Virus record (IMG/VR): IMGVR_UViG_3300032250_000269
Location: 25,069 to 89,068 of that record
Length of the DNA stretch: 64,000 nucleotides
DNA from: a virus
Taxonomy: Duplodnaviria; Heunggongvirae; Uroviricota; Caudoviricetes
Strand: one strand, 5' to 3'
The notes beneath the pieces are model-generated. The model was given only the letters and a program-made list of their open reading frames with translations, was not told the origin of the DNA and did not search any database. Positions 2,523 to 51,914 of this stretch are shown here, one piece after another; positions within the stretch are counted from its first letter, which is position 1, and each line of letters begins with the position of its first letter. Position numbers and translations under genes: made by a program.

Positions 2523-2891
2523 ATGGCTAAAGAACTATTATTCTCTATCACTGCCAATGACTGTGATTGGTCTTACACTCGTGGTACTGGTAAAGGCGGT
2601 CAGAAGAAAAACAAGACTTCATCTGCCGTACACTGTATGCATCGCCCTTCAGGCGCACATGGCTATAGTGAAGCTTCTCGCTCTCAGTTGGATAACAAGA
2701 GAGAAGCTTTTCGCAAGATGGCCGAAACAAAAGAATTCCAGAAATGGCATAAGATCGAAGCGGCAAGGCGCATGGGTACACTTGCCACTATCGAAGACAA
2801 TGTTAATCGTGAGATGAATAACATCACGGTTGAAATCAAAGACGAAAAAGGTCGCTGGACTAAAGTGGACAGGGACTATCCTTTAGAATAA
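2523..2891 (+). CDS. RF-1-domain GGQ protein, ArfB-like peptidyl-tRNA hydrolase
   Basis: GTGKGGQKKNKTSSAVH matches ArfB/YaeJ GAGGQHVNKTSTAIH; 122 aa. Confidence 0.7.
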   Translation: MAKELLFSITANDCDWSYTRGTGKGGQKKNKTSSAVHCMHRPSGAHGYSEASRSQLDNKREAFRKMAETKEFQKWHKIEAARRMGTLATIEDNVNREMNNITVEIKDEKGRWTKVDRDYPLE

Positions 2892-6487: not shown

Positions 6488-6922
6488 GTGGAGTATTATA
6501 TGTGGTTATACAGAAATGAAGAAATAAATGAACTGCCAGAGGGGTGTGAAGCATTTGTTTACTTGATCACCAACAAAACAAATGGTATGATGTATGTTGG
6601 TAAGAAATTAGCAAAGTTTAAGGTCACAAAAGCACCACTTAAAGGCAAAACAAAGAAAAGACGTTCTACAAAAGAAAGTGATTGGCGAGAATATTGGGGT
6701 TCTAGTGATAGACTGAAATCCGATGTAGAAAAACTTGGAGAAGAAAATTTTACAAGAGAAATCTTGCATTTCTGTCCAAGTCGTGGTATTGCTAGTTATT
6801 TAGAAGCAAGAGAACAATTTGAGCGTAAAGTATTAGAAACCGATGATTACTATAATGGTATTATAAACGTAAGAATTGGTGGATCAAATATTTTAAAAGA
6901 GTACTTAAAAACTATAAGATAA
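6488..6922 (+). CDS. GIY-YIG homing endonuclease-like protein
   Basis: VYLITNKTNGMMYVGKK GIY-YIG motif; free-standing between metabolic genes. Confidence 0.7.
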   Translation: MEYYMWLYRNEEINELPEGCEAFVYLITNKTNGMMYVGKKLAKFKVTKAPLKGKTKKRRSTKESDWREYWGSSDRLKSDVEKLGEENFTREILHFCPSRGIASYLEAREQFERKVLETDDYYNGIINVRIGGSNILKEYLKTIR

Positions 6923-7409: not shown

Positions 7410-7679
7410 ATGGGTAAGAAGAGAATTCGTAGTAAGAAGGTATCAGGCGGTGAACGCCGTTCTATCGGTCGCTGGGTAATCAACGCTGTTCGTCGTGACA
7501 AGTCAGAATTTGATAAGGCACTAGATAAGCTTGCTGCTTGGAAGGCCGGTAAGAATCCTTGGATTACTATTGCTGGCCCATCGTCTAATCAGCGTTTCAT
7601 TAGAGTACGTGCAAATATTCTCTATGGAAACCCAAAGACTGCTATGGCAAATATCTACGGTAATAAGACTGAAGAATGA
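7410..7679 (+). CDS. small highly basic protein (possible nucleic-acid binding)
   Basis: Lys/Arg-rich 89 aa; downstream of an 18-bp perfect inverted repeat. Confidence 0.5.
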   Translation: MGKKRIRSKKVSGGERRSIGRWVINAVRRDKSEFDKALDKLAAWKAGKNPWITIAGPSSNQRFIRVRANILYGNPKTAMANIYGNKTEE

Positions 7680-7990
7680 TATACATTGTTGATATCGACC
7701 AAACCATTTGTACTACCGAAAAGAAAAATGGTAAATGGGATTATGAAAACTCAACTCCCATATATAATAGAATAGATCATATAAATCAACTATATGATCT
7801 AGGTCACACGATTATCTATTGGACTTCAAGAGGAAACTCTACCGGTATTGATTGGTCAGAGCTTACAAAGAACCAATTAGATGGTTGGGGATGTAAATAT
7901 CATGAAGTTAAACTCGGAAAACCTGAATACGATGTATGGGTTGACGATAAAGCTTATAATGATGAACAATTTTTTGATGAGTATCTATGA
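7676..7990 (+). CDS. HAD-superfamily phosphatase-like protein (DxDxT motif IVDIDQT)
   Basis: N-terminal DIDQT motif; 104 aa; first gene of the sugar cassette. Confidence 0.45.
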   Translation: MIYIVDIDQTICTTEKKNGKWDYENSTPIYNRIDHINQLYDLGHTIIYWTSRGNSTGIDWSELTKNQLDGWGCKYHEVKLGKPEYDVWVDDKAYNDEQFFDEYL

Positions 7991-8946
7991 AAAAAGCGAT
8001 TATTACTGGTGCGGCTGGATTTATTGGCCGTGTTCTTCAGCTAAAACTGAAAGAAGCTGGTTATTATGTTTATGCTATTGATAAAAGACATGATGACGTA
8101 TCGTCTGATGAATATTATCAAATAAACTATTCTTTAATCGCAAACTATGAATACATTAACATTCATGATATCGATGTTATTTTTCATCTTGGCGCAAACA
8201 GCCTACTTGGTCCTTCAGTGACCGATCCCTTGACATATTATCAAAATAATGTTGGTAATATGTCAGAAATGCTAAACAATCTAGTAAAACAAAAGTGGAA
8301 GGGCGTTTTTATATTCGCCTCTTCTGCTGCAACTTATGGTGATCTTAATACTTCATCTCTTCTTGATGAGAATATGGCAGGAAATGCTATAAATCCATAT
8401 GGATCAACTAAAGTTGTTGGTGAGATGATGCTTAAAGAAACGTGTGAAGCATACGGTTTCAAGGCATACTCCATGCGATTTTTTAATGTCGCTGGTTCCT
8501 ATAAAAATGTTGGTCAAGATTTAAATCAACCACACATTTTAACCAAAATGTCCTTATCCTCTCTACAAAACGATACATTTTATATCAACGGAAACACGTA
8601 CAATACATATGATGGTACGTGTGTTCGTGACTATATTCATGTGTCTGATGTTTGTGATGCATTGATGGCCGCAGAAACGTCACTATACACTATGCCAGAA
8701 GGTCACTATGATGCCTTTAATGTTTGTACTGGTAATGCAGTATCAAACAAACAGTTGGCTGAGAAGTTTATTGAAAATTATCCTTTACAATATGACTTCA
8801 AAGAAATTCGACTTGGCGATCCGGGATATTTGATTGGAAATCCAAGTAAGTTATCTTCTATATGGAAGACCGGCCCACAATATCAAATTGATGATATTAT
8901 CAAAACACATTATAACTATGCATTATATGCAAATGAAAGGAAGTAA
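7987..8946 (+). CDS. NAD-dependent sugar epimerase/dehydratase (SDR; HldD-like heptose epimerase candidate)
   Basis: N-terminal AIITGAAGFIGRVL Rossmann motif; 319 aa. Confidence 0.72.
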   Translation: MKKAIITGAAGFIGRVLQLKLKEAGYYVYAIDKRHDDVSSDEYYQINYSLIANYEYINIHDIDVIFHLGANSLLGPSVTDPLTYYQNNVGNMSEMLNNLVKQKWKGVFIFASSAATYGDLNTSSLLDENMAGNAINPYGSTKVVGEMMLKETCEAYGFKAYSMRFFNVAGSYKNVGQDLNQPHILTKMSLSSLQNDTFYINGNTYNTYDGTCVRDYIHVSDVCDALMAAETSLYTMPEGHYDAFNVCTGNAVSNKQLAEKFIENYPLQYDFKEIRLGDPGYLIGNPSKLSSIWKTGPQYQIDDIIKTHYNYALYANERK

Positions 8947-8949
8947 ATT

Positions 8950-9948
8950 ATGAGTGTTATTTGGGAACGTAATGAAATGAATCAGAATTCTCAAGGTGGT
9001 ACTGAGAGAATGATGGAAGGCGTTCTTTCTCGTCTTAAACCAGAATATCATGAAAAGTTTCAGATTATTCCTTCACGTGTTCGTGAACTATATGATGATC
9101 GTATTCGTATATATTGGCTACATGATTTGCCATGGGACAATGAAACAAATCATCTAGCAGATGAAAATAGTCGTGATCGTTTTCATAAGATTGTTTATTG
9201 CGGTAATTGGCAAATGAATATGTATCAAAATATGCTTAATATTCCTCAAAACCAAAAGAGTTGTGTTATTGATACTGCCATCACTCCATTTGATGAGATA
9301 CAAAAGGGCGATCCAAAAGAAGAAATTCGCCTCATCTATACAAGCACTCCACAACGTGGTCTTAGTATTTTGGTCCCCGTTTTTGAAAAGCTGTGTGAAA
9401 AGTATGATAACATTGTACTTGATGTTTTTTCTAGTTATAGAATATATGGTTGGGAACAAGCAGATTATCAGTTTGAAAGTCTTTTTCAAAGATGCCGTGA
9501 TCATCCTAAGATTAATTATTATGGTTTCGCTCCAAATGATGTTGTACGTAAACATATGGCTAAGGCACATATTTTTGCATATCCTTCAATTTGGCCAGAG
9601 TGTAATAGTCAGTCTTTGATTGAAGCTATGTCTGCTGGTGCGATATGCGTCCATCCTAACTATGCTGGTCTTAGTGACACATCAGGCTCTATAACAATTC
9701 AATATCATTGGGATAATGATTTAAATACCCATGCAAATATTTTTTATTCTGTTCTTGACGGAACGATTCAAAAGATGTATAATGCTGATATGATACCATA
9801 TCTAAATTTCCAGAAAAATTATGCCGATTATCGTTATAATTGGGATAAGATTGGTTTTCAATGGAATTCTCTGTGTGAGAATCTACTAGCTCAGTATGAA
9901 GGTAAGAGCTTTGCTGTTTCCAAGCCAAGCTTTATCTACAGAACATAA
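8950..9948 (+). CDS. glycosyltransferase, GT-B fold (GT4-like)
   Basis: C-terminal QSLIEAMSAGAICV resembles the GT1/GT4 E-x7-E sugar-donor motif. Confidence 0.55.
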   Translation: MSVIWERNEMNQNSQGGTERMMEGVLSRLKPEYHEKFQIIPSRVRELYDDRIRIYWLHDLPWDNETNHLADENSRDRFHKIVYCGNWQMNMYQNMLNIPQNQKSCVIDTAITPFDEIQKGDPKEEIRLIYTSTPQRGLSILVPVFEKLCEKYDNIVLDVFSSYRIYGWEQADYQFESLFQRCRDHPKINYYGFAPNDVVRKHMAKAHIFAYPSIWPECNSQSLIEAMSAGAICVHPNYAGLSDTSGSITIQYHWDNDLNTHANIFYSVLDGTIQKMYNADMIPYLNFQKNYADYRYNWDKIGFQWNSLCENLLAQYEGKSFAVSKPSFIYRT

Positions 9949-9959
9949 AGAGACATTTT

Positions 9960-10901
9960 ATGATACTTGCAAAAGCACCACTTCGTGTTAGTTTTTTTGG
10001 TGGGGGTAGTGATATCCCCACCCATTTTTTAAAGTGGGGCGGTTCTACTATCTCCATGGCTATTGACAAATACGTCTATGTTGTTGTTATGCCAACTCCT
10101 CATAATTATATAAAGGTATCATATTCAAAGCAAGAATGTGTCACAAATGTTGATGATTTGCAGAATGATATTATAAAAAACACATTGAAGTTTTTTGGTA
10201 TTAAATCTAATATAGAAATAAACACATTTGCTGATATCCCAACCGTAGGAACAGGTCTTGCCGGTTCTTCTGCATTTACTTGTGCTTTAGTAAAGGCATT
10301 AAGTGCGTTTGTTGGTAATGAATATCATGATTCATATGATATAGCAAAAATTGCATGTCATATTGAGATTAATATGTGCGGTTGGAATATTGGTATGCAA
10401 GATCAATATGCTGCTGCTTTTGGCGGAATGAACTATATTCAATATTCTGATAAAAACATTCTTGTTCATAAAATGAATGTCAATCAAATTGATGAATATA
10501 TGTTGTTGATTCCAACCAATATTCAAAGACATTCTTCAAAAGTCCTTGACAATGTTAATTTTTCAGATAAAGCTTCTTGTATATGGAGTCTATCTGATAT
10601 AGCTGATGATGAATATAAAAATATTCCTTCTTTATGTCAATATGGAAAATTGTTAGAGAAATCTTGGGACTTGAAAAAGCAGATGGATTCTGGTATATCC
10701 AATCCAGAGATTGATGCCATGTATGATAAGTGCATGAACCACGGTGCTGTTGGTGCCAAATTGCTTGGCGCTGGTGGTGGTGGATATATGCTAGCTCTAA
10801 CAGAAGATCGTGCTAAAATCAAAGAAGCATTTTCTGATCGTGTGTGTCTAAATGTTTCTGTTTCACATGAAGGAACCAAAATTGTATATAGAGAGCCTTG
10901 A
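9960..10901 (+). CDS. hddA: GHMP sugar kinase, D-glycero-D-manno-heptose 7-phosphate kinase-like (HddA family)
   Basis: APLRVSFFGGGSDIP N-terminus and GxGSSAA, GAGGGG GHMP motifs. Confidence 0.72.
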   Translation: MILAKAPLRVSFFGGGSDIPTHFLKWGGSTISMAIDKYVYVVVMPTPHNYIKVSYSKQECVTNVDDLQNDIIKNTLKFFGIKSNIEINTFADIPTVGTGLAGSSAFTCALVKALSAFVGNEYHDSYDIAKIACHIEINMCGWNIGMQDQYAAAFGGMNYIQYSDKNILVHKMNVNQIDEYMLLIPTNIQRHSSKVLDNVNFSDKASCIWSLSDIADDEYKNIPSLCQYGKLLEKSWDLKKQMDSGISNPEIDAMYDKCMNHGAVGAKLLGAGGGGYMLALTEDRAKIKEAFSDRVCLNVSVSHEGTKIVYREP

Positions 10902-11448
10902 ACTAATTCGTAACACGCATACTGCAACAGTTCAGTATGGTTTTGAATCTATTAACCAAAAGCAATTTCAAGAAGCGGCAGATTGCATTGTCAATGCCAT
11001 TTATAATGGAAAGACAATCTTTACGGTTGGTAATGGCGCTTCTGCCGCAATCGCACAGCATTGGGCATGTGACTATACCAAAGGGTGCCGTCCTTATGGA
11101 AATCCTCGTGTTATCTCATTATCAACCAACATTCCGTTGATGACTGCGATTTCCAATGATATTTCATACGATGAAGTATATGCTTATCAGGTAAATGCTC
11201 TTGGTGATTGGGAAGATGTACTCATCACAATTTCTTCTAGCGGAAACTCACCAAACGTGGTAAGAGCCATTGAAGCAGCAAAGAAAAGAAACATGAAGAC
11301 CATCGCATTGACAGGTTTTCAGGGCGGCAAGTCAAGAGAACTTGCTGACTACCCCATTCATGTTGATGTTCAAGAGTATGAGGCTGCTGAAGATGTTCAT
11401 CAGGCGATTATGCATATGATTGCCAAATATATTAGGGTTGTTCTCTAA
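10852..11448 (+). CDS. gmhA: phosphoheptose (sedoheptulose-7-P) isomerase, SIS domain
   Basis: TVGNGASAAIAQHWACDY and ISSSGNS SIS motifs; start uncertain (10852 or 10867, overlaps hddA end). Confidence 0.8.
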   Translation: MFLFHMKEPKLYIESLELIRNTHTATVQYGFESINQKQFQEAADCIVNAIYNGKTIFTVGNGASAAIAQHWACDYTKGCRPYGNPRVISLSTNIPLMTAISNDISYDEVYAYQVNALGDWEDVLITISSSGNSPNVVRAIEAAKKRNMKTIALTGFQGGKSRELADYPIHVDVQEYEAAEDVHQAIMHMIAKYIRVVL

Positions 11449-11449: not shown

Positions 11450-12562
11450 ATGATTAAGACTGCGAAGAAAAAAGCTACTCCTCGTACCACAAAGTTTGCT
11501 GATCAACGTTGGATGGGTTCTGAACCTGAAGAGAACGTTTCTATCACTGATGGCTCTGATATGCGCTATCATAATGCTTTGTATTGGTATGGTTATTACT
11601 ACGACACTGATCAAGCAAAAGATTGGCTTCTTGAATATATGAAGAAGAATAGCTATGATGCAAGTATCATAGCTAGTGTCAAAACTGCCCCTGCATCCCG
11701 TACACCTACTACAATTGGCTGGATGGCCAAGTTGATGATGCGTGGTTGGATTCTTCCTGAAAAGTCCATGCAATTTTTCAATAGTCGCATTCAAGAAAAT
11801 GCTTCGTTTGGTAAGCGTGAAAAGAAGGAAGACGATTCTCCAAAGGTTGTTGTCAACATCCAAGAAAAGATTGCTGTTAAGGCTCGTGAGCTTCGTGCAA
11901 AGCTTGACGAACATATTGATGCATTCGTTTTTGATGGTTTGGATAACAATTTTTCACTTTACAGTTTTCTACAGACAGAAAGTCCAACTCCTGTTGGAAT
12001 CAATCTGATTGTGTCTTACGTCAATTCTTTGTACCAAGATTTGGTAAATAAGGAAGGATATGAAGACATTCCTGCTGCCAAGTACAAGTCATGGCTTAAG
12101 TTTCATAAGGCTCTTGTAGACGATGCAGAGCGTTTTCATTCGAACATGAAGATCACTCGACAGGTTCGTAAGCCACGTGCTATCAAGATCAAGCCAGCCG
12201 CTAAGCTGGTTGAAAAGATGAAGTACAAGAAGGAAGATACTGAGCAAAAGCTAGTTAGTATCAATCCTGTTGACATTATTAAGGCTCAAACTTTGTGGGT
12301 GTATAATACTAAATATAGACAGCTATCAGTGTATCATGCCATTGATGAAGGCGGTCTATCAGTTAAGGGTACTACCATCACACAGTTTGATGAGAAAAAG
12401 TCTGTGACAAAGCGTTTACGCAAGCCACAAGAAGTACTACCCGAATTGCTTGCTGCTGGTAAAATTGCTCTTAGAACGTTTATGGAACGTATTAAGACGA
12501 ATTCAACGGTACCAACTGGTCGCATTAACGAAGAAGTAGTACTATTGAGGATAATGAAATGA
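11450..12562 (+). CDS. hypothetical protein
   Basis: 370 aa ORF starting right after gmhA stop; no motif recognised. Confidence 0.5.
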   Translation: MIKTAKKKATPRTTKFADQRWMGSEPEENVSITDGSDMRYHNALYWYGYYYDTDQAKDWLLEYMKKNSYDASIIASVKTAPASRTPTTIGWMAKLMMRGWILPEKSMQFFNSRIQENASFGKREKKEDDSPKVVVNIQEKIAVKARELRAKLDEHIDAFVFDGLDNNFSLYSFLQTESPTPVGINLIVSYVNSLYQDLVNKEGYEDIPAAKYKSWLKFHKALVDDAERFHSNMKITRQVRKPRAIKIKPAAKLVEKMKYKKEDTEQKLVSINPVDIIKAQTLWVYNTKYRQLSVYHAIDEGGLSVKGTTITQFDEKKSVTKRLRKPQEVLPELLAAGKIALRTFMERIKTNSTVPTGRINEEVVLLRIMK

Positions 12563-31611: not shown

Positions 31612-32431
31612 GAATATTGTTCTAATTGCTGCCTCTGCTCTTTCGCTTGCTGCTTGTTCTCAAGTAGAACCCGGCCATGTTGGTATCCGTGTTGATCAGT
31701 ATGGTTCAAGTGCGGGTGTTTCTCAAACAGCACTTCCAGTTGGTACGTATTACACTGGTCCCGGCACCACCATCTATGAGTATCCTGTATTCACTCAGAC
31801 ATATACATGGACTATCAACAAGGAAGAGGGCAGCGAAAAGAACGAAGAATTTTCGTTTGCTGATAAGAGCGGTCTAACCCTTACTGGTGACGTAGCTGTT
31901 AGCTATCATGTCGATGCTACTAAGGCTCCTATTCTTTTCCAGAAGTATCGTATGGATATGGACGCAATCGTTTCTGGACCAATGCGTGTGGCTATTCGTG
32001 ATGCTATCACAAACAATGCTTCAAACATGACTGTCGAGGAAATCTATGGTCCTCGTAAGGCAGAACTGATTGCAAAGGCACAAGCTGACGTTCAGAAGTT
32101 CTTTACACCATTTGGTCTTAATGTAGAGAAGCTTTATTGGGCTTCACCAGTGCGTGTTCCTGATACGGTAATGCGCCAGATCAATGCGAAGATTGCTAAT
32201 GAACAGCAAGCTCTAGCTGCACAGGCTGCTGTTGCTACTGCTGAAGCAAACGCACGTGCACGTATCGCAAAGGCAGAGGGTGAAGCAAAGGCTACTCAGA
32301 TCGAAGCTGAAGCACTTCGCACCAACCCTGCTATTCTTCAGCAGAAGTGGATTGATAAGTGGTCAGGTAATCTTCCTACTTATATGGCAGGAAATGGCAA
32401 TGGGATCATGATGACCATTCCTACTAAGTAA
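31601..32431 (+). CDS. SPFH/band-7 (prohibitin/HflKC-like) lipoprotein
   Basis: Signal peptide plus lipobox LAAC; C-terminal Ala/Glu-rich coiled coil typical of SPFH proteins. Confidence 0.6.
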   Translation: MKFKNIVLIAASALSLAACSQVEPGHVGIRVDQYGSSAGVSQTALPVGTYYTGPGTTIYEYPVFTQTYTWTINKEEGSEKNEEFSFADKSGLTLTGDVAVSYHVDATKAPILFQKYRMDMDAIVSGPMRVAIRDAITNNASNMTVEEIYGPRKAELIAKAQADVQKFFTPFGLNVEKLYWASPVRVPDTVMRQINAKIANEQQALAAQAAVATAEANARARIAKAEGEAKATQIEAEALRTNPAILQQKWIDKWSGNLPTYMAGNGNGIMMTIPTK

Positions 32432-33020
32432 CTTTTTTCCAGTGGAATCCTTTATGTCTTCCACCATTTATACAAGCTCTAGAAATTTTTGATACTGAAC
32501 CATTAATTTCTTCTGCTGCTGCGCTGAGACTTTCATATATTATGTTAGTCTCAGCGCAGATTACCCTTTTCTTTAAAGAATCTATACTTTTACCTTTATT
32601 AGATTTATTTCTTTCTACTAAATCTGGTCTAGGTTTTAGTTTTCTTCCGGTTCTTCTGATATTAGATTCAGAAATCCAAGGGGCTTTAAATGTTTTACCA
32701 AACATAGGATGCATTTCTTTTGGTTTACCTAATAGCCAATGATTTTCAATCATAGGACCATTACAGACATTTACTAATTTTGAGCCGTTATTTCTATACT
32801 CTTCTATTAGTTTTATTTCTAATTCTTCTGCTTCACGTTTTGTAAGATTTTTTGAAATAATTTTGACACCAAAACCTCCATGTTTAGCAACTTTGTTGTT
32901 CCAATGTTTGTTTCTATTGAATTTATCTTTAGCTCGTTTTGGTCTTCCTTCACCAATATAAAATATTTCTTCTGTTTCTATTATATAATGTGCATATACA
33001 ACAAAGTTTTTGTCTTCCAT
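32424..33020 (-). CDS. GIY-YIG homing endonuclease
   Basis: VVYAHYIIETEEIFYIGEG GIY-YIG motif; only minus-strand gene in its neighbourhood. Confidence 0.7.
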   Translation of the reverse strand: MEDKNFVVYAHYIIETEEIFYIGEGRPKRAKDKFNRNKHWNNKVAKHGGFGVKIISKNLTKREAEELEIKLIEEYRNNGSKLVNVCNGPMIENHWLLGKPKEMHPMFGKTFKAPWISESNIRRTGRKLKPRPDLVERNKSNKGKSIDSLKKRVICAETNIIYESLSAAAEEINGSVSKISRACINGGRHKGFHWKKVT

Positions 33021-34369: not shown

Positions 34370-36181
34370 ATGTTTTCATTTAAACAATTTATTAGAGATT
34401 TAACAGAGTCAAAGTATGAAGATGATGATTATGAAAGTGATTATCTTGATCCTGCTGGTCCCGGTGCACTATATGCTCATTTTGCTAGTCTAGATGAACT
34501 TGATCCAGAAATCAGGGATCATATGCTTAGCAACACTGGTAAGCAAAATATTAAAGAAAGTGCTGAAGCACCACACAAAGTTCTTCAGAAAAAAATGTCT
34601 GAACCAGCCGCTAATCCAGAAGCACAGTCAGATGTTGATAATCAAGTAAAATCAGCACTTAAAAGACACGTTCAAGCATATGGTCGTGAAATTGGTGCTC
34701 CATTAAACCGTTCACAGTCTACAGAAGCGGGAAGAAAAGCCGTAGAAGACCACTATAAGAAATCACCAGAAGAACAAGCCGTAGCATTGCAAGCTGCTGC
34801 ATCAAGAATTGGTCATGTTGCTTATGGTGATAAAAATATGTCACCAAAAGAAGTAGCTGATCGTCTTGCTGGTGGTAATAAGAAAACCGATACTGTTATC
34901 AACAATCCTATCGCAAAGTATAAGGGAAAGCTTACTAGCTCTGTGTCTAGTTATGGTGGTGCTCCCGGTGCATATACTCACTTTGGAGATTCTTCAGGTA
35001 GCTCACAACACCATGTGATAACTTGTCCACATGGTACAACTGGATGTATGGTTGGACAATCTCTTGCTGCTGGGATTGGACACAATTCAAGAATAGGTAG
35101 GGTTGGCCCTTCATGTCTTGCTAAGTCTGGTGGATATGGTTTCAAATCAACTCGTAAAAAAGTTCAAATTAATTCACACATTCGTTCTGGTGGTGATGGT
35201 GGTACTGGTGGTCCAAGCACTGTTGCTGATCATGCTATTCTTACTGCATATAGATTGGCAACAGAAGCAGCCAAAGCAAAGAAGTCAGGTGCAATTCATG
35301 CTGTAAGAACACAAACAACTGATCAACGAGGCGAGGACATTCGTGCTATTGCTAATGAAACTGCTAAGCACGTACCTTCTGTAAGAAGTAATACCGTTTT
35401 GTTTGGCTATTCAAAAAATCCTAAAGAAGTTTTGGATGCTGCAAGAGCAACAAAAAACAGTGGAAATGTTCCAGAACATATTGTGCATAGCCATCCCGGA
35501 CCAGCATATCATCAAGACCGTCAAGGCAATTTAAATCTCAACACAGAGAATATTCGTGCTCTTAAAAACCTTCGTGCTGCACATAAAGCTGCAACTCAAG
35601 AGGGGTTGAACATTAGCGATTATGTTGTTACTGGTGGTAATTCTCTTGATAGCAACGGTGATGCTATTGCAGGAACTGTGCATCGTCAGCCAAAAAGTAA
35701 TGCTAAACCAGAAGAAAAGCAAAGATTTAATAATTTAGATTCTTCTGTTAAAACTGTTCGTTATTGGGATTTACACCACAGCGGTGAGTTGCAACCGGGT
35801 GAACCAGAATCACATCATGATAAAAAAACCGGAACTGGTCATACTACAATTGAACAAGGCGGTAAGCGTCTTAAAGTCAAGTATTATGATCGTAAAGCAA
35901 ATCCCGGTGCCACTGAAACTGGCAGAACTGTGTATAGCCAAAGACATGATGCTCGTTATTCTGATGCAGAAACTAATGCACCACACGCAAATGTCACTGC
36001 TCCTGTAGCTTCTACAAGTAATGAAGCAACACATTCTAGTCAAACTAACTCTATGTTCCATCAAATGCACGTATCATACGATATGCATGGTAACAAGATG
36101 CGCCACAGTCAAGCTGGTATGCTTCACGATGCTCATCCTGATCTTATGCAAAAAGCAGGATACGTATATCCAGATAAGTAA
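34370..36181 (+). CDS. large His/Gly-rich protein with CTS-like N-terminus (candidate packaged/injected protein)
   Basis: MFSFKQFIRDLTE N-terminus; 603 aa. Confidence 0.55.
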   Translation: MFSFKQFIRDLTESKYEDDDYESDYLDPAGPGALYAHFASLDELDPEIRDHMLSNTGKQNIKESAEAPHKVLQKKMSEPAANPEAQSDVDNQVKSALKRHVQAYGREIGAPLNRSQSTEAGRKAVEDHYKKSPEEQAVALQAAASRIGHVAYGDKNMSPKEVADRLAGGNKKTDTVINNPIAKYKGKLTSSVSSYGGAPGAYTHFGDSSGSSQHHVITCPHGTTGCMVGQSLAAGIGHNSRIGRVGPSCLAKSGGYGFKSTRKKVQINSHIRSGGDGGTGGPSTVADHAILTAYRLATEAAKAKKSGAIHAVRTQTTDQRGEDIRAIANETAKHVPSVRSNTVLFGYSKNPKEVLDAARATKNSGNVPEHIVHSHPGPAYHQDRQGNLNLNTENIRALKNLRAAHKAATQEGLNISDYVVTGGNSLDSNGDAIAGTVHRQPKSNAKPEEKQRFNNLDSSVKTVRYWDLHHSGELQPGEPESHHDKKTGTGHTTIEQGGKRLKVKYYDRKANPGATETGRTVYSQRHDARYSDAETNAPHANVTAPVASTSNEATHSSQTNSMFHQMHVSYDMHGNKMRHSQAGMLHDAHPDLMQKAGYVYPDK

Positions 36182-36191
36182 GGACTAATAA

Positions 36192-38372
36192 ATGTTAACT
36201 TTTATCAACTATATGTTAATGATCGAAGCCAAGGTAGATGATTTGGTGACGAAGCACCCTGAACACGCAGAAGCAATTCGTGCATACAATGCTGCTGATC
36301 CTACACCTACCAAGAAGTTTTTGCCTTGGTTAGTAAAGCAACATATTGCTGGTAATGTTACGCCTAATGATGCTAGACTTGGTTCTACACTACAAAATTT
36401 TGATAAAGTAAAACACCAACTTGATAACAAAGATCATAGCGGTTATCATTATAATGATCTTGCTAATAAGGTTGGTGATCGTGTCAAAGCAAAGTTAGAA
36501 GCAGACGCAAAAAAGAATGCTGTAGAGACTATCCATAAAGAACCAAGCGGTATAACAGCACAACATATCAAAACCAAAGAAGCTTCACAAGACCTTTATG
36601 GTGGCGGCGCTGAACGTGGTGGTAAGAAAGGATGTGCTCGTGGTACTTCATGGTGTGTTTCTGCACGTTCTGAAGGAAACTTGTTTGATCGTTATGGTCA
36701 TATGTATACCATACACGATCCAAACGATGATAATGCACCTTATGCCGTACATCCATTCAATCGTGGCGGTATCATAACGTCAAGACATAATGATGGTGAT
36801 AAATCATACAAACTAGTATTAGAACAAAAGCCACATTTAAAAAATGCTGTTAATGCTATTATTGATCATTCCGCAAAACATATTGATGAAATGATGACAG
36901 GCGAAGAAGCTCGTAATGCTATTAATCATCCAAATATAACACCAGAGCATATCGATAAGGCATTAAATCATCCTTATGATAATGGTGTTCGTGAAAAGGC
37001 CGCTGCTCATCCGAATGCAAGTCCTGCAAACATTGAAAAGGCTTTGAAGGCTAATCAGCCAGCCACTGTGCAAGAAGCAGCAATTAGAAACCCAAATGCT
37101 ACTCATGCACAAATTCAAAACGCACTAGAAAATGGAGACAGTGGATTAATCATTTCTGCAATCAGTAATCCAAATCTATCATCAAGTCATATTGATCATG
37201 TTTTGAAAAATGGTTCTAAGCTTCAGAAAATTAAGGCGATGCAACATCCAAATGTAACATCAGAGCATATCACCAAAGCACTAAATGATCCAGAAGCGTC
37301 TGTCCGTTATGCTGCTATAAATCATCCAAATGCAACCGCAGAACACATTACCAAAGCATTAGATGATCCAGATGATAATGTGCGTTATGAAATTATGAGG
37401 TCTGGACACAAAAATATGACACCAGAGCATATCACCAAAGCACTAGATGATACTGATGCTGGTGTGCGTAGGGTTGCTTTGAAAAACTCATTAGTTACAC
37501 CAGAACATATCACCAAAGCACTAGATGATACTGATGCTGGTGTGCGTAGGATTGCTATAGAACATCATAAAATAATACCAGAACATATCACCAAAGCACT
37601 AGATGATACTGATGCTGGTGTGCGTAGGATTGCTATAGAACATCATAAAATAATACCAGATCATATTACCAAAGCATTGAAAAGTGCAGACGCTGATGTT
37701 CGTGAGATTGCTATAAAAAATCGTAATGCAACACCAGAGCATATCACACAAGCATTAGATGATCCTGACACATATGTTCGTGAATCTGCTATAAAAAATC
37801 GTAATGCAACACCAGATCACATCACCAAAGCACTAAATGACAAAAATGTTAATGTACGTGCTGTCGCTGCGTATCGCTCAAATGCAACAGAAGATCATAT
37901 TACTAAAGCATTAAATGATGAACACCCACAAGTTCGTAGGGCTGCTATAGAAAATCGAAATGCAACACCAAAGCATATTAATAAGGCATTAGATGATAAA
38001 AACTTTAATGTTCGTTTTGCTGCTATTGATAATCGAAATGCAACACCAGATCACATCACCAAAGCACTAAATGATAAAGATAATAATGTTCGTCGTGCTG
38101 CTATAAGACATCCAAATGCAAACACCGAGCATATTACCAAAGCATTGGATGATTCTAACAACTATGTTCGTGAAGCTGCTTTAGAACATCCAAATGTAAC
38201 ACCAGATCATATCACCAAAGCATTGGACGATCCTGATGAATATGTTCGTGGAATTGCTATAGAACATCCTAAAGCAACCGCAGAACACATTAAAAAAGCA
38301 TTAAATGATCCAGATTATGATGTTAGATTAACCGCACAGGTCAAAGCTGATGCTATACGTCCAAGACAATAA
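36192..38372 (+). CDS. large protein: novel N-terminal domain plus about 19 HEAT-like (PBS-lyase type) repeats
   Basis: Tandem 31-aa units HITKALDDxDxxVRxxAIxHPNATPE; N-terminus MLTFINYMLMIEAK. Confidence 0.6.
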   Translation: MLTFINYMLMIEAKVDDLVTKHPEHAEAIRAYNAADPTPTKKFLPWLVKQHIAGNVTPNDARLGSTLQNFDKVKHQLDNKDHSGYHYNDLANKVGDRVKAKLEADAKKNAVETIHKEPSGITAQHIKTKEASQDLYGGGAERGGKKGCARGTSWCVSARSEGNLFDRYGHMYTIHDPNDDNAPYAVHPFNRGGIITSRHNDGDKSYKLVLEQKPHLKNAVNAIIDHSAKHIDEMMTGEEARNAINHPNITPEHIDKALNHPYDNGVREKAAAHPNASPANIEKALKANQPATVQEAAIRNPNATHAQIQNALENGDSGLIISAISNPNLSSSHIDHVLKNGSKLQKIKAMQHPNVTSEHITKALNDPEASVRYAAINHPNATAEHITKALDDPDDNVRYEIMRSGHKNMTPEHITKALDDTDAGVRRVALKNSLVTPEHITKALDDTDAGVRRIAIEHHKIIPEHITKALDDTDAGVRRIAIEHHKIIPDHITKALKSADADVREIAIKNRNATPEHITQALDDPDTYVRESAIKNRNATPDHITKALNDKNVNVRAVAAYRSNATEDHITKALNDEHPQVRRAAIENRNATPKHINKALDDKNFNVRFAAIDNRNATPDHITKALNDKDNNVRRAAIRHPNANTEHITKALDDSNNYVREAALEHPNVTPDHITKALDDPDEYVRGIAIEHPKATAEHIKKALNDPDYDVRLTAQVKADAIRPRQ
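37438..37716 (+). repeat. three near-identical tandem 93-bp DNA repeats inside the HEAT-repeat gene
   Basis: Repeated unit ...CCAGAACATATCACCAAAGCACTAGATGATACTGATGCTGGTGTGCGTAGGATTGCTATAGAACATCATAAAATAATA. Confidence 0.8.
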
Positions 38373-38390
38373 ACAAGTAAGGTTTAATAA

Positions 38391-40028
38391 ATGTTAACTT
38401 TTATCAACTATATGTTAATGATCGAAGCCAAGGTAGATGACTTGGCAGCAAAGCACCCTGAACATGCAGAAGCGATTCGTGCTTATCATGCTGCTGATCC
38501 ATCACCAACCAAGAAGTTCCTACCTTGGTTAGTAAAGCAACATATTGCTGGTAATGTAACTCCTAATGATGTAAGACTTGGCTCTACTTTACAACACTTC
38601 GACAAAGTAAAGCATCAACTTGATAACAAAGATCATAGTGGTTATCATTATAATGATCTTGCTAATGCTGTTGGTGATCGTGTCAAAGCTAAACTTGAAG
38701 CTGATGCAAAAAAGAATTCTGTAGAAACCATTCACAAAGAACCAAGCGGTATAACAGCACAACAAATCAAGACCAAAGAAGCATCACAAGACCTTTATGG
38801 AGGTGGAGAAGCTCGTGGTGGTAAGAAAGGTTGTGCACGTGGTACAAACTGGTGCGTTTCTGCTCGTCCCTCTTCTCATGGTGATGGAAATCTTTTTGGA
38901 CATTATGGTCATATGTATACTATACATGATTCAAATGATGAAAATGCACCATATGCTGTGCATCCTTTTTATTATGGTGGTCCGACAATCACTTCTAGAC
39001 ATAATGATGGAGACAAACCACATACACAAGTATTGGCACAGAAACCACACTTAAAAAAAGCTGTGAATGCTATTCTAAATCATTCTGCAAAACATATCGA
39101 TTCATTAATTAATTCAGATGATGATGATGAAGTTTATCATGCCATTAGCCATCCACGTGCGACACCAGAGCATATTGATAAAGCATTAAGTCATACCGAT
39201 TCTGATGTTCGTAATACTGCTGCTAGTCATCCCAATGCATCTCCTGCAAATATTCAAAAGGCTATGAAAGGCAGTGCTTCCATGCAAGAAGAAGCAATCA
39301 AAAATCCAAATGCTACTCATGCTCAAATTCAAAATGCATTGGAGAATGGTCATGGTGGTTTAGTTCGTGCTGCTATTGATAATCCAAATCTATCATCAAG
39401 CCATATTCATCATATTTTGGATCATGGTTCTGAAATACACCGTATCGTAGCTTTAAATCATGCTAATGCAACGGAAGATCATATTACTAAGGCATTAGAT
39501 GATGTTAATACAAGTGTTCGTTTTGCTGCTTTAAACCATCCAAAAGTCACACCTGATCATATTACTAAAGCATTGAGTAATGATGATCCAGAGGTTCGTG
39601 CTGCTGCTATACGTCATCAAAATGCAACACCAGATCATATCACAAAGGCATTGAATGACGATGATCCAGATGTTCGTGCTGCTGCTATACGTCATCAAAA
39701 TGCTACACCTGATCATATTACTAAAGCATTAGATGATCCCATTCGTGTAGTTCGTCTATCTGCTATAAATCATCCAAATGCAACACCAGAGCATATTACT
39801 AAAGCACTAAATGATTCTCACCCATATGTTCGTGCTGCTGCTATAAATCATCCAAATGCAACACCAGATCATATCACTAAAGCACTAAATGATCCTGATT
39901 TTCAAGTTCGCAAAGCCGCTATTAAAAACCCAAATCGTACACCAGAGCATATTGCTAAAGCATTGAATGACGATGATGGAATAGTTCGTGATGCTGCTGA
40001 CGTTGCTCGTATCCAACAAAATCGATGA
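38391..40028 (+). CDS. paralog of the preceding HEAT-repeat protein
   Basis: Near-identical N-terminal domain, divergent repeat number. Confidence 0.6.
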   Translation: MLTFINYMLMIEAKVDDLAAKHPEHAEAIRAYHAADPSPTKKFLPWLVKQHIAGNVTPNDVRLGSTLQHFDKVKHQLDNKDHSGYHYNDLANAVGDRVKAKLEADAKKNSVETIHKEPSGITAQQIKTKEASQDLYGGGEARGGKKGCARGTNWCVSARPSSHGDGNLFGHYGHMYTIHDSNDENAPYAVHPFYYGGPTITSRHNDGDKPHTQVLAQKPHLKKAVNAILNHSAKHIDSLINSDDDDEVYHAISHPRATPEHIDKALSHTDSDVRNTAASHPNASPANIQKAMKGSASMQEEAIKNPNATHAQIQNALENGHGGLVRAAIDNPNLSSSHIHHILDHGSEIHRIVALNHANATEDHITKALDDVNTSVRFAALNHPKVTPDHITKALSNDDPEVRAAAIRHQNATPDHITKALNDDDPDVRAAAIRHQNATPDHITKALDDPIRVVRLSAINHPNATPEHITKALNDSHPYVRAAAINHPNATPDHITKALNDPDFQVRKAAIKNPNRTPEHIAKALNDDDGIVRDAADVARIQQNR

Positions 40029-40684: not shown

Positions 40685-40755
40685 ACAATCCCTATATACA
40701 AGAAATCACTCAGATAGACTGTGTGATATATTTTAACACAAAGGAGTTTTGTGGA

Positions 40756-41856
40756 ATGGACAAAGAATTTGATCTACTAGTTTTCATTGGGCGTTTTCAG
40801 CCCTTTCATACTCAACATAAACACGTAATTGATATTGCTCTTCAGAAAGCTAATAAGGTTCTTATTCTTATTGGTTCTTCTGGGAAAGCACGTACTATTC
40901 GCAATCCGTTCACTTTTGATGAACGTTGCGATATGATTCACAAATCATTTCTTGACTATGATCTTGATGCATCAAATGATGTAGATGGATGTGTAGCAAC
41001 TTCTCGTCTTATCATCAAGCCTCTCTATGACAAGACTTACAATGATGCTGCTTGGATCAAGCAAGTACAGGATATTGTCAAGGATACTACACTTCGTATT
41101 ATGAATCCAAGTGGTTTCATGGCCTCTGGATTGAATGATGCTAAGGTTGGTTTGATTGGTGCCAGTAAGGACAACACTAGCTACTATCTGAAGCTTTTTC
41201 CTCAATGGGGTTCTGTCAATGTACCTATCAATACGATGATGCATTCGACAGCAATTCGTGATGGTTTCTTTTCTGGTAAGATGAAGCGTCATGAATTGAT
41301 CACAAATGAACTTACTACACCTGTTGCAAATTTCATGTTTAATGAGTTTGCTCATACTGATGAGTTTTCTCAGCTTCAGCGTGAACTCGATCATGTGAAA
41401 AAGTATAAGGAAGCATGGAAAGCTGCACCTTATGCCGTAAAGCATATCACAGTAGATGCTATTGTTGAACAGAGCGGTCATATTCTGGTTGTAAAGCGTA
41501 GAAGCGAACCGGGTAAGGGTCTATGGGCTTTGCCGGGTGGTCATCTAGAAGAATTTGAAACTCTTGAAGATGGTGTTATTCGTGAGCTACGTGAAGAAAC
41601 CAAGATTAAGGTTCCTGATCCTGTTCTTCGTGGTTCGATTCAAAAGACGCATATGTTTGATGATCCACATCGTTCAAATATTGGTCGTGTAATCACTTTT
41701 GCTGCACACATTAAGCTTAATGATGATACCAAGCTTCCAAAGGTAAAGGGTGCTGATGATGCAGAAAAGGCGATATGGTTGCCAATCACTGATGTGAAGG
41801 AAGATATGCTTTTTGATGATCATTATCACATCATTAGTTATTTCTTGGGTCTTTGA
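40756..41856 (+). CDS. natV: bifunctional NMN adenylyltransferase / Nudix hydrolase (NadM-Nudix, KVP40 NatV-like)
   Basis: GRFQPFHTQH (HxGH) nucleotidyltransferase motif; Nudix box GGHLEEFETLEDGVIRELREETKI. Confidence 0.8.
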   Translation: MDKEFDLLVFIGRFQPFHTQHKHVIDIALQKANKVLILIGSSGKARTIRNPFTFDERCDMIHKSFLDYDLDASNDVDGCVATSRLIIKPLYDKTYNDAAWIKQVQDIVKDTTLRIMNPSGFMASGLNDAKVGLIGASKDNTSYYLKLFPQWGSVNVPINTMMHSTAIRDGFFSGKMKRHELITNELTTPVANFMFNEFAHTDEFSQLQRELDHVKKYKEAWKAAPYAVKHITVDAIVEQSGHILVVKRRSEPGKGLWALPGGHLEEFETLEDGVIRELREETKIKVPDPVLRGSIQKTHMFDDPHRSNIGRVITFAAHIKLNDDTKLPKVKGADDAEKAIWLPITDVKEDMLFDDHYHIISYFLGL

Positions 41857-41945
41857 ATAAAGACTTGACAAATTTTTGATTTATCGTAAACGTAAAAATG
41901 GCAAGGGATAGACTCAAGCCAAAAAACAAATAGAGGAGTTCTATT

Positions 41946-43316
41946 ATGAAAAATATTATTCTAAATTCAGATAGTTACAAGTACAGTCAGTTCAATCAAT
42001 ACCCGGAAGGGACTGAGTACATCTACAGCTACATCGAAAGTCGTGGTGGTAAGTATGATGAGACTGTGTTCTTTGGTCTTCAGGCATTCATCAAGGAATA
42101 CTTGACAAAGCCTATCGATTATTATGATATTGATGAAGCAGCCGCCATTATTGGTGCACATGGAGAACCTTTCAACTATAAAGGTTGGGAATACATCGTT
42201 CGTGAACATGGTGGTTATCTTCCTGTGAAGATCACGGCTGTTCCTGAAGGTCTTGTTATTCCCACTCGTAATGTGCTGGCAACTATTGTTAACACTGATC
42301 CTAAGTGTTACTGGTTGACTAGCTTCCTAGAAACTGCACTGCTTCGTGCTATTTGGTATCCTACCACAGTGGCTACTAACAGTCGTGAAATTAAGAAGGT
42401 TATTCTTGATGCTCTTGAGCGTACCGGTACTCCTGAAGATATTGCTTTTAAGCTTCATGACTTTGGCGCTCGTGGAGTCAGTAGTCTCGAAAGTGCAGGA
42501 ATTGGTGGTGCTGCCCACTTGGTCAACTTCATGGGTACTGACACTGTTGAGGCTTTGCTTTATGCTCGTCGTTATTATGGTGCTGATATGGCCGGGTTCT
42601 CAGTTCCTGCAATGGAGCACTCAACTGTAACTAGCTGGGGTCGTGAACGTGAGGTTGATTCATACCGCAATATGGTAAAGAAGAATGGCAAACCCGGTGG
42701 TATTGTATCTGCTGTTAGTGATAGCTATGATATCTTCAATGCATGTAAGCTTTGGGGTACTGAGCTAAAGCAGGATGTTCTTGATTCAGGTGCAACTCTT
42801 GTAGTTCGTCCTGATTCTGGTAAGCCTGATGAAGTTGTTCTTGGTTGTCTTGTGGTGCTTGATAAGTACTTTGGTCACACTATCAATAACAAGGGATACA
42901 AGGTATTGAATAACGTTCGTGTCCTTCAAGGTGATGGTATTACGATTGATTCAATCAAGGAAATCCTTGCTCTTATTATTGCTAATGGCTATAGTGCAGA
43001 TAATCTTGTATTCGGTCAAGGTGGTGCATTGCTTCAGATTGTCAATCGTGATGATCAGAAGTTTGCTATGAAGTGTTCTGCTGCTTTTGTTAATGGTAAG
43101 TGGGTTGATGTATTCAAAGACCCTATTACTGACAAGGGTAAGCAGAGTAAGAAGGGTAAGCTCAAGTTGGTCAAAGATGTAGATCATTATATTACTATCA
43201 ACAGCCACGATAAAATGTTCGAAATCCTTCACGATGAGATGGAAGTTGTATTCGAAAATGGTGTACTTCTTCGTGACATGAGCTTTGATGAAGTTAGAAA
43301 AAATGCAAATATGTAA
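41946..43316 (+). CDS. nadV: nicotinamide phosphoribosyltransferase (NadV/Nampt)
   Basis: N-terminus NSDSYKYSQ and size typical of Nampt; adjacent to NMNAT. Confidence 0.85.
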   Translation: MKNIILNSDSYKYSQFNQYPEGTEYIYSYIESRGGKYDETVFFGLQAFIKEYLTKPIDYYDIDEAAAIIGAHGEPFNYKGWEYIVREHGGYLPVKITAVPEGLVIPTRNVLATIVNTDPKCYWLTSFLETALLRAIWYPTTVATNSREIKKVILDALERTGTPEDIAFKLHDFGARGVSSLESAGIGGAAHLVNFMGTDTVEALLYARRYYGADMAGFSVPAMEHSTVTSWGREREVDSYRNMVKKNGKPGGIVSAVSDSYDIFNACKLWGTELKQDVLDSGATLVVRPDSGKPDEVVLGCLVVLDKYFGHTINNKGYKVLNNVRVLQGDGITIDSIKEILALIIANGYSADNLVFGQGGALLQIVNRDDQKFAMKCSAAFVNGKWVDVFKDPITDKGKQSKKGKLKLVKDVDHYITINSHDKMFEILHDEMEVVFENGVLLRDMSFDEVRKNANM

Positions 43317-50948: not shown

Positions 50949-51022
50949 AAAAATATATATTACATTTTCATTACATTGTTTCATTTTTATTATAAATAAT
51001 AAGACATGAAAGGAGATGTTCA

Positions 51023-51148
51023 ATGTATGTAACATATATAATTCTAGGTATTATCATAGGTCTTGGTGTATGCTCAGTATTTGCTCTTAGCGAATATAGT
51101 GCATCAAAAAAACTTAAATGTGTTTTAAATATACCTCAACATAGTTGA
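51023..51148 (+). CDS. small hydrophobic peptide (41 aa)
   Basis: RBS AAAGGAG; single TM. Confidence 0.3.
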   Translation: MYVTYIILGIIIGLGVCSVFALSEYSASKKLKCVLNIPQHS

Positions 51149-51209
51149 ATGCTGTCATAGGTAGCAGTCTTTATAAATAGTAAGAAAACTATTTCAATAA
51201 GGATTGAAA

Positions 51210-51914
51210 ATGAAATCATATACAGAATTTTTAGAAGAATCACTTATCAAGCAACTTACTCTGAAGTATCATAATAGGCTTAATCCAAAGATTTGGAAAG
51301 GTGATCAACTTAGAGATGGATTTGCTGAAAAACTCGTTGAAAAAGCATATGAATTTGCTTCTTACTCAGGAGTTTCTAAAGGTCGTATCAAAGATATCGT
51401 CATCACAGGCGGTAATGTCAACTACAACTATACGAAGTTCTCAGATATCGATGTTCACTTGATGTGTGATGTAAGTGGTTTAGACAGCGACAAGCTTTAT
51501 GAAAAAAAAGTGTCATGGACAGCCAGTCATAAGAATTTGAAGGTTGCAGGGTATCCAATAGAGTTTTATGCTGCTAATGACAAAGATCATTTTCCAAATG
51601 GACAGGGTGTTTATTCTATTCTTGAAAACAAATGGTTGATTGTTCCAAAGCATCTTGATCATGTGGATGTTTTGCGTGATCCAAAGGTGATTGACAAAAT
51701 CAACTATTATGTTAAGTATATCAGAACACTGTTAAAGAGCGGTACAGAAGCAGAAATTAAGGCTTTTAAAGACAAGCTACATACAATGCGTGGTTCTGGA
51801 TTGCATCATGGTGGTGAATTTTCGGTTGAGAATGTTGTCTATAAAGACCTTCGAAATCGTGGATTGTTAGATAAATTAAATGCAAAAATTCATCATAAAG
51901 GTGAAGAAGTTTAA
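51210..51914 (+). CDS. Pol-beta-fold nucleotidyltransferase with CTS-like N-terminus
   Basis: GGNVNYNYTKFSDIDVHL (G[GS]..DhD) plus later acidic residue; N-terminus MKSYTEFLEESL resembles T4 MKTYQEFIAEA. Confidence 0.6.
   Translation: MKSYTEFLEESLIKQLTLKYHNRLNPKIWKGDQLRDGFAEKLVEKAYEFASYSGVSKGRIKDIVITGGNVNYNYTKFSDIDVHLMCDVSGLDSDKLYEKKVSWTASHKNLKVAGYPIEFYAANDKDHFPNGQGVYSILENKWLIVPKHLDHVDVLRDPKVIDKINYYVKYIRTLLKSGTEAEIKAFKDKLHTMRGSGLHHGGEFSVENVVYKDLRNRGLLDKLNAKIHHKGEEV

Follow-up and report, generated by a model that had tools for sequence, protein, structure and literature searches.

Five contiguous genes of a T4-superfamily phage probably form a module that draws on sedoheptulose-7-phosphate to make an activated heptose, which a dedicated phage glycosyltransferase (GT) would then receive, a degree of confidence that covers the pathway and the transferase and excludes the acceptor of the sugar. 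The genes lie in a 64,000-nucleotide stretch of DNA (positions 25,069 to 89,068 of IMG/VR record IMGVR_UViG_3300032250_000269), hereafter the window, which corresponds to approximately 124-188 kb of the 192,694-bp metagenomic contig ENA ERZ28593858 scaffold_13. The window also encodes td, frd, nrdA, grx, nrdB, speD, RNase H, and PhoH, as well as MazG, RnlA, NadV with an NMNAT-Nudix protein, and a Dda-like helicase. Megablast against the phage collection returned no nucleotide-level relative of the window among deposited phages. The five genes and the gene that follows them are listed below.

7676-7990 (+): small stand-alone HAD phosphatase, 104 amino acids
7987-8946 (+): GalE-like extended SDR of the NDP-sugar 4-epimerase family, 319 amino acids, whose start overlaps the HAD stop (ATGA)
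8950-9948 (+): GT-B glycosyltransferase of GT4 type, 332 amino acids
9960-10901 (+): GHMP sugar kinase of the HddA/WcbL group, 313 amino acids
10867-11448 (+): GmhA-like SIS-domain isomerase, 193 amino acids, overlapping the 3' end of the kinase gene
11450-12562 (+): hyp370, a conserved basic protein of 370 amino acids with an isoelectric point (pI) of 9.6, 3' of the block

The arrangement described in the original prediction was confirmed as five same-strand, near-abutting open reading frames (ORFs), and an independent gene caller gave the same ORFs on public contigs that carry an identical kinase. The packing is tight, with stops and starts that overlap or nearly abut and all genes in one direction. 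The isomerase start at 10867 is that of the public gene call, and an alternative ATG at 10852 would give a protein of 198 amino acids. In a scan for sigma-70 promoters and terminators, promoters were not enriched over shuffled sequence. The five genes are one operon-like module, and the block is not a product of chance, because the Caulobacter phage Cr30 and dozens of independent loci carry this gene set too, and in a conserved order.

Four of the five families proposed in the original prediction (HAD phosphatase, GT4-like glycosyltransferase, HddA-like GHMP heptose-7-phosphate kinase, and GmhA sedoheptulose-7-phosphate isomerase) were borne out, and the fifth, an HldD-like SDR epimerase, stood as an SDR epimerase and lost its HldD-like label. 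The kinase matched both GHMP domains of Pfam over their cut-offs (N-terminal PF00288, 53.4 bits; C-terminal PF08544, 41.9 bits). Its best NCBIfam model was HddA (NF049969, 1e-38, 133.7 bits, cut-off 600), approximately 49 bits ahead of the runner-up family (84.9 bits), and its top four PDB matches were all heptokinases, namely WcbL (4usm and 4usk), 3k85, and HddA of C. jejuni (4n3o). The motifs APLRVSFFGGGSD, GLAGSSA, QDQ, and GAGGGG were kept in 82 homologues. The isomerase matched SIS_2 of Pfam at 1e-24 and scored best against the gmhA model of NCBIfam (TIGR00441, 1.2e-37, 129.4 bits, cut-off 209.45), with DiaA at 105.8 bits; its PDB matches comprised both GmhA and DiaA proteins, at 1e-22 to 3e-28. 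Across 65 phage isomerases, the positions of E. coli H61, E65, Q172, and H180 are occupied by an invariant H/D/E/H, and the phosphate-binding S119, S121, and S124 are retained, while DiaA differs from the phage proteins at the GmhA metal and catalytic positions.

The HAD protein carries a DxDxT nucleophile motif (VDIDQT, the DIDQT of the original prediction) together with TSRG, GKP, and VDDK. It matched phrog_1238 (6e-27), matched 9iqw at 1.6e-11 and also 1xpj in the PDB, and had a sole NCBIfam match, EcbF-BcbF (TIGR01689, 7.5e-7, 29.1 bits), under the cut-off of 162. A tblastn search retrieved 389 phage records, 370 of which cover at least 80% of the protein. The closest matches (43-53% identity) come from cyanophage heptose clusters, and the others include many T4-like phages of Escherichia, Acinetobacter, and Klebsiella, one of them annotated as an RB69 ORF051c homologue. 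The protein is also homologous to the N-terminal half of HAD-cytidylyltransferase fusions in two related loci (L002 and L012). No GmhB model of NCBIfam matched it, and a classical GmhB from a related locus (L007), used as a query, found no match in the window. Full-length homology and the DxDxT motif place it in the RB69 ORF051c/AfhF family of small HAD phosphatases. RB69 gp51 and its HY126 counterpart AfhF are described as converting arabinose-1,5-bisphosphate into arabinose-1-phosphate (PMC13326640). Since AfhF takes a sugar-1,5-bisphosphate to a sugar-1-phosphate, the family would remove the non-anomeric phosphate of sugar bisphosphates. This is the task of GmhB in heptose pathways, and the window HAD is predicted to strip the 7-phosphate off heptose-1,7-bisphosphate.

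The SDR matched Epimerase of Pfam at 9.5e-39 and scored best against GalE among NCBIfam models (TIGR01179, 190.8 bits, under the cut-off of 262.3), with much lower scores for the heptose-epimerase models TIGR02197 (86.3 bits, cut-off 274.6) and NF008360 (47.5 bits, cut-off 452). Its best PDB matches are uridine diphosphate (UDP)-glucose 4-epimerases (8wxk, 144 bits), and it aligns to 8wxk at the cofactor and catalytic GxxGxxG, S, and YxxxK as well as at the nucleotide-contacting R..GD. It is 36% identical to the 'UDP-glucose 4-epimerase' at the same position in Cr30.

For the GT, Glycos_transf_1 of Pfam was matched at 8e-9 (35.7 bits, over the cut-off of 26.4). An AlphaFold model with a predicted local distance difference test score (pLDDT) of 93 and a predicted template modelling score (pTM) of 0.90 has a GT-B fold of GT4 type, and its top Foldseek matches (~1e-11) are HepE, BshA, SenB, MshA, PimA, TarM, and SdgB; by sequence, the GT had no match in the PDB. 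The EX7E motif (E217-x7-E225) is kept across 88 homologues. Together, the Pfam match, the predicted fold, and EX7E identify it as a retaining GT4-type GT-B enzyme. Glyco_transf_9, the GT9 family of WaaC and WaaF, was found neither in Pfam at E<=0.01 nor in the top 50 structural matches. The family is very large: 3,791 homologues were retrieved at E<=1e-10, IMG/VR has it in at least 587 loci, and among 185,579 species genomes it was seen only on phage-like contigs of metagenome-assembled genomes. Cellular homologues had been sought as a clue to the ancestral acceptor, and only those phage-like contigs turned up. By this distribution, the GT is phage-specific. It is also the best-conserved gene of the block (54-60% identity, against approximately 50% for RNase H and 40-50% for PhoH) and has kept its genomic position in phages that infect Caulobacter, Sinorhizobium, Stenotrophomonas, and Ochrobactrum.

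In the proposed pathway, the GmhA-like isomerase would convert sedoheptulose-7-phosphate into D-glycero-D-manno-heptose-7-phosphate, the HddA-like GHMP kinase would phosphorylate C1 to give heptose-1,7-bisphosphate, and the AfhF-type HAD would take off the 7-phosphate to leave heptose-1-phosphate. A transferase encoded outside the window would then turn heptose-1-phosphate into a nucleoside diphosphate (NDP)-heptose, which the GalE-like SDR would epimerise, and the retaining GT4 enzyme would finally transfer the sugar to an acceptor. The first three steps are suggested by family membership, conserved motifs, and context, and the last three by family membership and comparison. The earlier proposal that the block would make heptose-1,7-bisphosphate and heptose-1-phosphate from sedoheptulose-7-phosphate can be retained as a prediction from sequence.

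Two bacterial pathways resemble this scheme in part. The GDP-D-glycero-alpha-D-manno-heptose pathway (GmhA, HddA, GmhB, and HddC) has the GmhA-type isomerase, the HddA-type C1 kinase, and the 7-phosphatase step in common with the block. It differs in using GmhB where the window has a 104-amino-acid HAD of AfhF/EcbF type, and in using HddC, of the NTP_transferase fold, where the window has none and its relatives use a cytidylyltransferase fold. The ADP-L-glycero-beta-D-manno-heptose pathway (GmhA, HldE, GmhB, and HldD) shares GmhA and an SDR epimerase acting after activation, and its HldE domain II is resembled by the activating enzyme of the relatives, a transferase that is absent from the window. 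Its kinase is the PfkB-type domain I of HldE and its epimerase is HldD, whereas the window has a GHMP kinase and a GalE-like SDR.

We compared 51 well-flanked related loci, in each of which the GT has 2.5 kb or more of sequence to either side. The block usually lies between nrdB and rnh, and it is also carried by Cr30, the cyanophage SynMITS9220M01, and dozens of T4-like contigs from metagenomes. The Cr30 genome (KF301602) has, in order, glutaredoxin, a GalE-like gene, the GT, a heptose kinase, a small ORF, a phosphoheptose isomerase, and a hyp370 homologue, so that the order GalE-like gene, GT, HddA-like kinase, GmhA, and hyp370 homologue is that of the window; its block proteins are 36-44% identical to those of the window. 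An IMG/VR contig (L005) carries a near-identical relative (77-99% amino-acid identity), and a diverged one (L006) has the order GT, HAD, SDR, kinase, and GmhA. The order in SynMITS9220M01 is GT, kinase, GmhA, HAD-containing protein, and SDR. A further locus (L014) keeps the gene order, with the block placed between the neck genes gp14 and gp13. At least one module gene accompanies the GT in 47 of the 51 loci, and the kinase is present in 44. The GT stands alone in the remaining four; the Sinorhizobium phage phiM12 is of this type, with grx, DUF2693, GT, hyp388, hyp120, and RNase H, and PhoH further on.

The supply genes vary. In 30 of the 51 loci, a gene of approximately 135 amino acids with a cytidylyltransferase fold lies upstream of the GT at a median distance of 945 bp and directly upstream of the SDR gene, the position that is occupied by the HAD gene in the window. 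Another 17 loci, which form the clade of the window (GT identity 53-88%), have SDR, GT, kinase, and GmhA and no cytidylyltransferase within 10 kb; only two of them, L005 and L006, have a HAD of the window type. In SynMITS9220M01 and L012, the HAD is fused to a cytidylyltransferase domain. The cytidylyltransferases of the relatives scored best against rfaE_dom_II (48-77 bits, below the cut-off), with lower scores for the TagD model; domain II of RfaE is a heptose-1-phosphate adenylyltransferase. The activation step in the relatives thus appears, from these matches, to be carried out by an HldC/RfaE-II-like enzyme of the cytidylyltransferase fold at, or fused to, the HAD position. Cr30 seems to lack a transferase at the block, but has a 'TagD' of the cytidylyltransferase family approximately 1 kb downstream of rnh. 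A classical GmhB occurs in four loci (L007, L064, L084, and L089), and a transaldolase, an enzyme that supplies sedoheptulose-7-phosphate, in three (L007, L012, and L032); in L007, transaldolase, classical GmhB, and cytidylyltransferase all adjoin the GT and the kinase. That relatives add the remaining heptose-pathway genes beside the same GT and kinase supports the heptose reading. Losses occur as well, with the kinase and GmhA absent from L056 and L094, where cytidylyltransferase, SDR, and GT are kept, and with the SDR missing from L087, L088, and L093. Isomerase, kinase, phosphatase, nucleotidyltransferase, epimerase, and transaldolase are supply genes that come and go around a conserved GT. 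The window's own variant, a stand-alone AfhF-type HAD where relatives have a nucleotidyltransferase, is a minor one.

The original prediction had seen no nucleotidyltransferase, and this was upheld for the 64-kb window and 9 kb upstream of it, together about one third of the phage genome (~193 kb). For the window, tblastn with queries of both the cytidylyltransferase and the HddC type, a custom cytidylyltransferase hidden Markov model run on the six-frame translation, and Pfam scans of candidate ORFs revealed no sugar nucleotidyltransferase, and none appeared in precomputed Pfam lists for the region from 9 kb upstream up to 21 kb and for 40-60 kb. When ten cytidylyltransferases were used in a profile search, at least 8,000 matches came back, and among the 120 listed none lay on the contig of this phage. 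Three candidates were considered and set aside. The NatV-like protein at 40723-41856, which holds the sole CTP_transf_like domain found in the window, was rejected as an NMNAT plus Nudix protein beside NadV, that is, as part of nicotinamide adenine dinucleotide (NAD) salvage. The ORF at 51204-51914 had only NTP_transf_2 at E=0.042, a fold of Pol-beta type and not that of a sugar transferase. Finally, hyp370 was considered as a hidden transferase or as the acceptor, and its AlphaFold model (pLDDT 84) had no significant match to a PDB fold by Foldseek. Given that the block keeps an SDR of the GalE type, a family that acts on nucleotide sugars, a nucleotide-activated heptose would still be made, and we infer that the activating enzyme comes either from another part of the genome, as it does in Cr30, or from the host.

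Several points weigh against this pathway. None of the five block proteins reaches its NCBIfam equivalog cut-off, and for this reason we infer the substrates of the enzymes. The nucleotidyltransferase is absent from the window and the 9 kb upstream. The SDR retains the UDP-contact motif and might serve a UDP-hexose. Moreover, textbook activation relies either on HddA with HddC or on HldE alone, and we know of no characterised combination of a GHMP kinase (alpha-type) with an HldC-like transferase (beta-type). The pairing seen in the relatives may represent a hybrid route of heptose activation.

An alternative is that there is no heptose module: the SDR and GT would use a UDP-hexose such as UDP-Gal, and the SIS/GHMP pair would serve another sugar phosphate or another end. 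We consider this improbable. The sub-cut-off scores of all five proteins would fit it, as would the best alignment of the SDR to UDP-glucose 4-epimerases with nucleotide contacts kept, the nearly equal score of the SIS protein against DiaA, and the five loci that lack either the kinase and GmhA or the SDR. Against it stand the lead of HddA among kinase models and the heptokinases that fill the top of the PDB list, the GmhA metal and catalytic positions that are invariant in 65 homologues and differ in DiaA, and the transaldolase, GmhB, and rfaE-II-like genes that join the block in relatives. It is very improbable that the transferase-less lineages dispense with nucleotide activation and that the GT4 enzyme uses heptose-1-phosphate or heptose-1,7-bisphosphate directly, much as the GT4 trehalose phosphorylase uses glucose-1-phosphate: the 17 loci without a nearby cytidylyltransferase, which include the window and its closest relatives, would agree with this, but the same loci retain the SDR of a nucleotide-sugar family, Cr30 encodes its enzyme just past rnh, and the absence was established for a third of the genome.

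We next consider which acceptor would receive the heptose. The likeliest single choice, which we put forward tentatively, is a glycoconjugate precursor of the infected cell's envelope (lipopolysaccharide (LPS), capsule, or S-layer glycan) at the cytoplasmic face, in which case the cell surface would be altered during infection. Heptose is normally an envelope sugar, which counts in favour of this acceptor. In addition, phage heptose genes of this kind have been read as LPS- or heptose-related (PMC7378029; PMC7029224). Three observations count against it: the GT has no cellular homologues, it is conserved above rnh and phoH across phages of very different hosts, and in some loci it is found without any sugar genes.

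With the same sugar pathway, the acceptor could instead be a protein, either a phage structural protein or a conserved host protein modified during takeover. This is rather doubtful. In its favour, the gene is phage-specific, surpasses RNase H and PhoH in conservation, keeps its locus in phages of four host genera, and stands alone in the phiM12 type. The block of L014 is placed between two neck genes, and SdgB and GtfA, which O-glycosylate proteins, are among the structural neighbours of the GT. Against a protein acceptor, the T4-type late-promoter motif TATAAATA occurs nowhere in window positions 1-43,000, which fits early or middle expression weakly, and the neighbours of the block are early-type nucleotide-metabolism genes (nrd, td, and rnh). 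No candidate acceptor protein was found, and the adjacent hyp370 is without a recognisable fold. If the acceptor were a protein, the GT would have a phage-intrinsic, near-core function and would not be a modifier of the host surface.

Hypermodification of DNA is unlikely. Here, the GT would heptosylate a hydroxylated or hydroxymethylated base, comparable to glucosyl-hydroxymethylcytosine in T4, arabinosyl-5-hydroxycytosine (arabinosyl-5hoC) in RB69, and heptosyl-5-hydroxymethylcytosine (heptosyl-5hmC) in a metagenomic cluster. The arabinosyl-5hoC pathway of RB69, DLP3, and HY126 (AfhE, AfhF, and Aat) follows the same chemical logic as the block, with a ketose-phosphate isomerase, a C1 kinase, a small AfhF-type HAD, a nucleotidyltransferase, and GT4-like DNA glycosyltransferases, and the structural neighbours of these DNA arabinosyltransferases likewise include BshA, MshA, and PimA (PMC13326640). 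Its isomerase is a KdsD-type arabinose-5-phosphate isomerase and its kinase of APH type, whereas the window has GmhA and a GHMP kinase, and the window GT had no match at E<=1e-5 in phages RB69, DLP3, and HY126. Heptose on 5hmC has been shown for the phage 'contig 53' cluster, whose heptose-handling enzymes are a GT-B enzyme, a cytidylyltransferase, and a fusion of HAD and kinase (bioRxiv 10.1101/2023.12.21.572611). In that cluster, a cytosine methyltransferase and a TET enzyme make 5hmC and the GT resembles the T4 beta-GT; no such pair was seen in the annotated parts of the window, and the T4 beta-GT was not among the top 50 Foldseek matches of the window GT. The location of the block among nrd, td, and rnh would suit a DNA acceptor, and a review table gives the DNA of the Stenotrophomonas phage DLP6, which has a GT 49% identical to that of the window, as restriction-enzyme-resistant.

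The original prediction took td for a true thymidylate synthase, and this proved correct, with Cys146 and Asn177 kept and approximately 300 bits to bacterial ThyA. The arabinosyl-5hoC clusters contain a 5-hydroxydeoxycytidine monophosphate (5hodCMP) synthase of ThyA type that has no counterpart in the window or in the loci of its relatives: none of approximately 94 related loci has a ThyA-family homologue within 10 kb of the GT, and the single ThyA of the complete Cr30 genome is canonical. DNA is unlikely because td is canonical and no ThyA-type hydroxylase lies near related blocks or in Cr30. Other points in the same direction are that the GT family is acidic (pI 5.4-6.8) and that Cr30 is, by the title of a paper, a transducing phage. 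The GT fold search was also tried as a means of telling DNA from other acceptors, and was not discriminating, since BshA, MshA, and PimA are reported for DNA arabinosyltransferases too.

The remainder of the probability falls to a small molecule or another acceptor. A small molecule merits attention because structural neighbours of the GT use such acceptors, for example inositol phosphate in the case of MshA.

Some observations on culturable carriers of the GT are recorded here separately. Cr30 (L110) encodes an inositol-1-phosphate synthase (54208-55389) and a second, 268-amino-acid 'cytidylyltransferase' (32055-32861). In DLP6, a methyltransferase, a nucleotide-diphospho-sugar transferase, and glutaredoxin precede the GT (L004, record positions 116266-118926), and an AfhF-type HAD (L108, 25073-25489) lies far from it.

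The gene following the block, hyp370, matched phrog_11903 (4e-67) and had no Pfam match. It adjoins the block in Cr30, phiM12, L006, L014, and L024-L032, and is the next gene after the GT in loci that lack the sugar genes; PA5oct-like and Stenotrophomonas phages carry it in the absence of the GT. The window holds a second glycosyltransferase-like gene (52810-54063, +, 417 amino acids) with an N-terminal GT25 domain of LPS type (1.1e-9) and a C-terminal Methyltransf_24, and its product might use the product of the heptose module. A late-promoter-like TATAAATA stands at 52641, approximately 160 nucleotides upstream of this gene. The motif occurs eight times in the window, a total that is not above chance; five of the eight cluster just upstream of ORFs at 50991-52648, and one more is at 62604 (+).

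Other features of the window, all on the plus strand, are as follows.

2523-2891 (+): 122-amino-acid RF-1-domain protein of ArfB or peptidyl-tRNA hydrolase type, the next gene after frd, possibly involved in ribosome rescue
6488-6922 and 52060-52707 (+): SegE-type GIY-YIG homing-endonuclease-like genes, the first between nrdB and speD and just upstream of the heptose block
34370-40028 (+): a run of three long ORFs (603, 726, and 545 amino acids) without a PHROG match, the second and third being HEAT-repeat proteins (Pfam HEAT 2.9e-37 and 1.1e-20), which are unusual in phage
40723-43316 (+): NAD-salvage pair of a nicotinamide mononucleotide adenylyltransferase-Nudix protein (NatV-like) and a nicotinamide phosphoribosyltransferase (NadV-like)
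approximately 55190-55330 (+): 46-amino-acid ORF with a weak ArfA match (L013, 15219-15359), possibly involved in ribosome rescue
57824-58477 (+): PP-loop ATPase (Pfam ATP_bind_3, TilS-like), 217 amino acids

With respect to what is new, the novelty implied in the original prediction was overstated. Cr30 and cyanophage genes of this kind already bear the annotations heptose kinase and phosphoheptose isomerase, and those of cyanophages have been described as LPS-related and host-derived (PMC7378029). T4-like 'LPS' clusters are also present in the cyanophages SynMITS9220M01, Bellamy, P-SSM2, and S-CAM1. The window departs from Cr30 in its stand-alone AfhF-type HAD and in having no nucleotidyltransferase that we could find, where Cr30 has no such HAD and a TagD-like transferase beyond rnh, and from SynMITS9220M01 in having a stand-alone HAD and a GalE-like SDR in place of a fused HAD and an HldD-like SDR. 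To our knowledge, the heptose or 'LPS' genes of T4-like phages from the sea and from fresh water have appeared in catalogues of auxiliary metabolic genes for approximately 20 years, and no target has been demonstrated.

What the comparison adds is that the conserved element is the GT and not the sugar genes, that this GT is phage-specific, and that its supply genes have been gained and lost around it. The acceptor question can be tested in culturable carriers, namely Cr30 on Caulobacter and DLP6 on Stenotrophomonas. It is possible, and we suggest it with caution, that in a very large clade of T4-like phages from water and soil the GT is a near-core enzyme and heptosylates not host LPS but a target that is intrinsic to the phage or conserved universally (a virion protein, a target of host takeover, or nucleic acid), with the heptose genes, the nucleotidyltransferase, and the HAD serving as interchangeable supply modules. 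If so, these phages would share a widespread and as yet uncharacterised viral glycosylation system.

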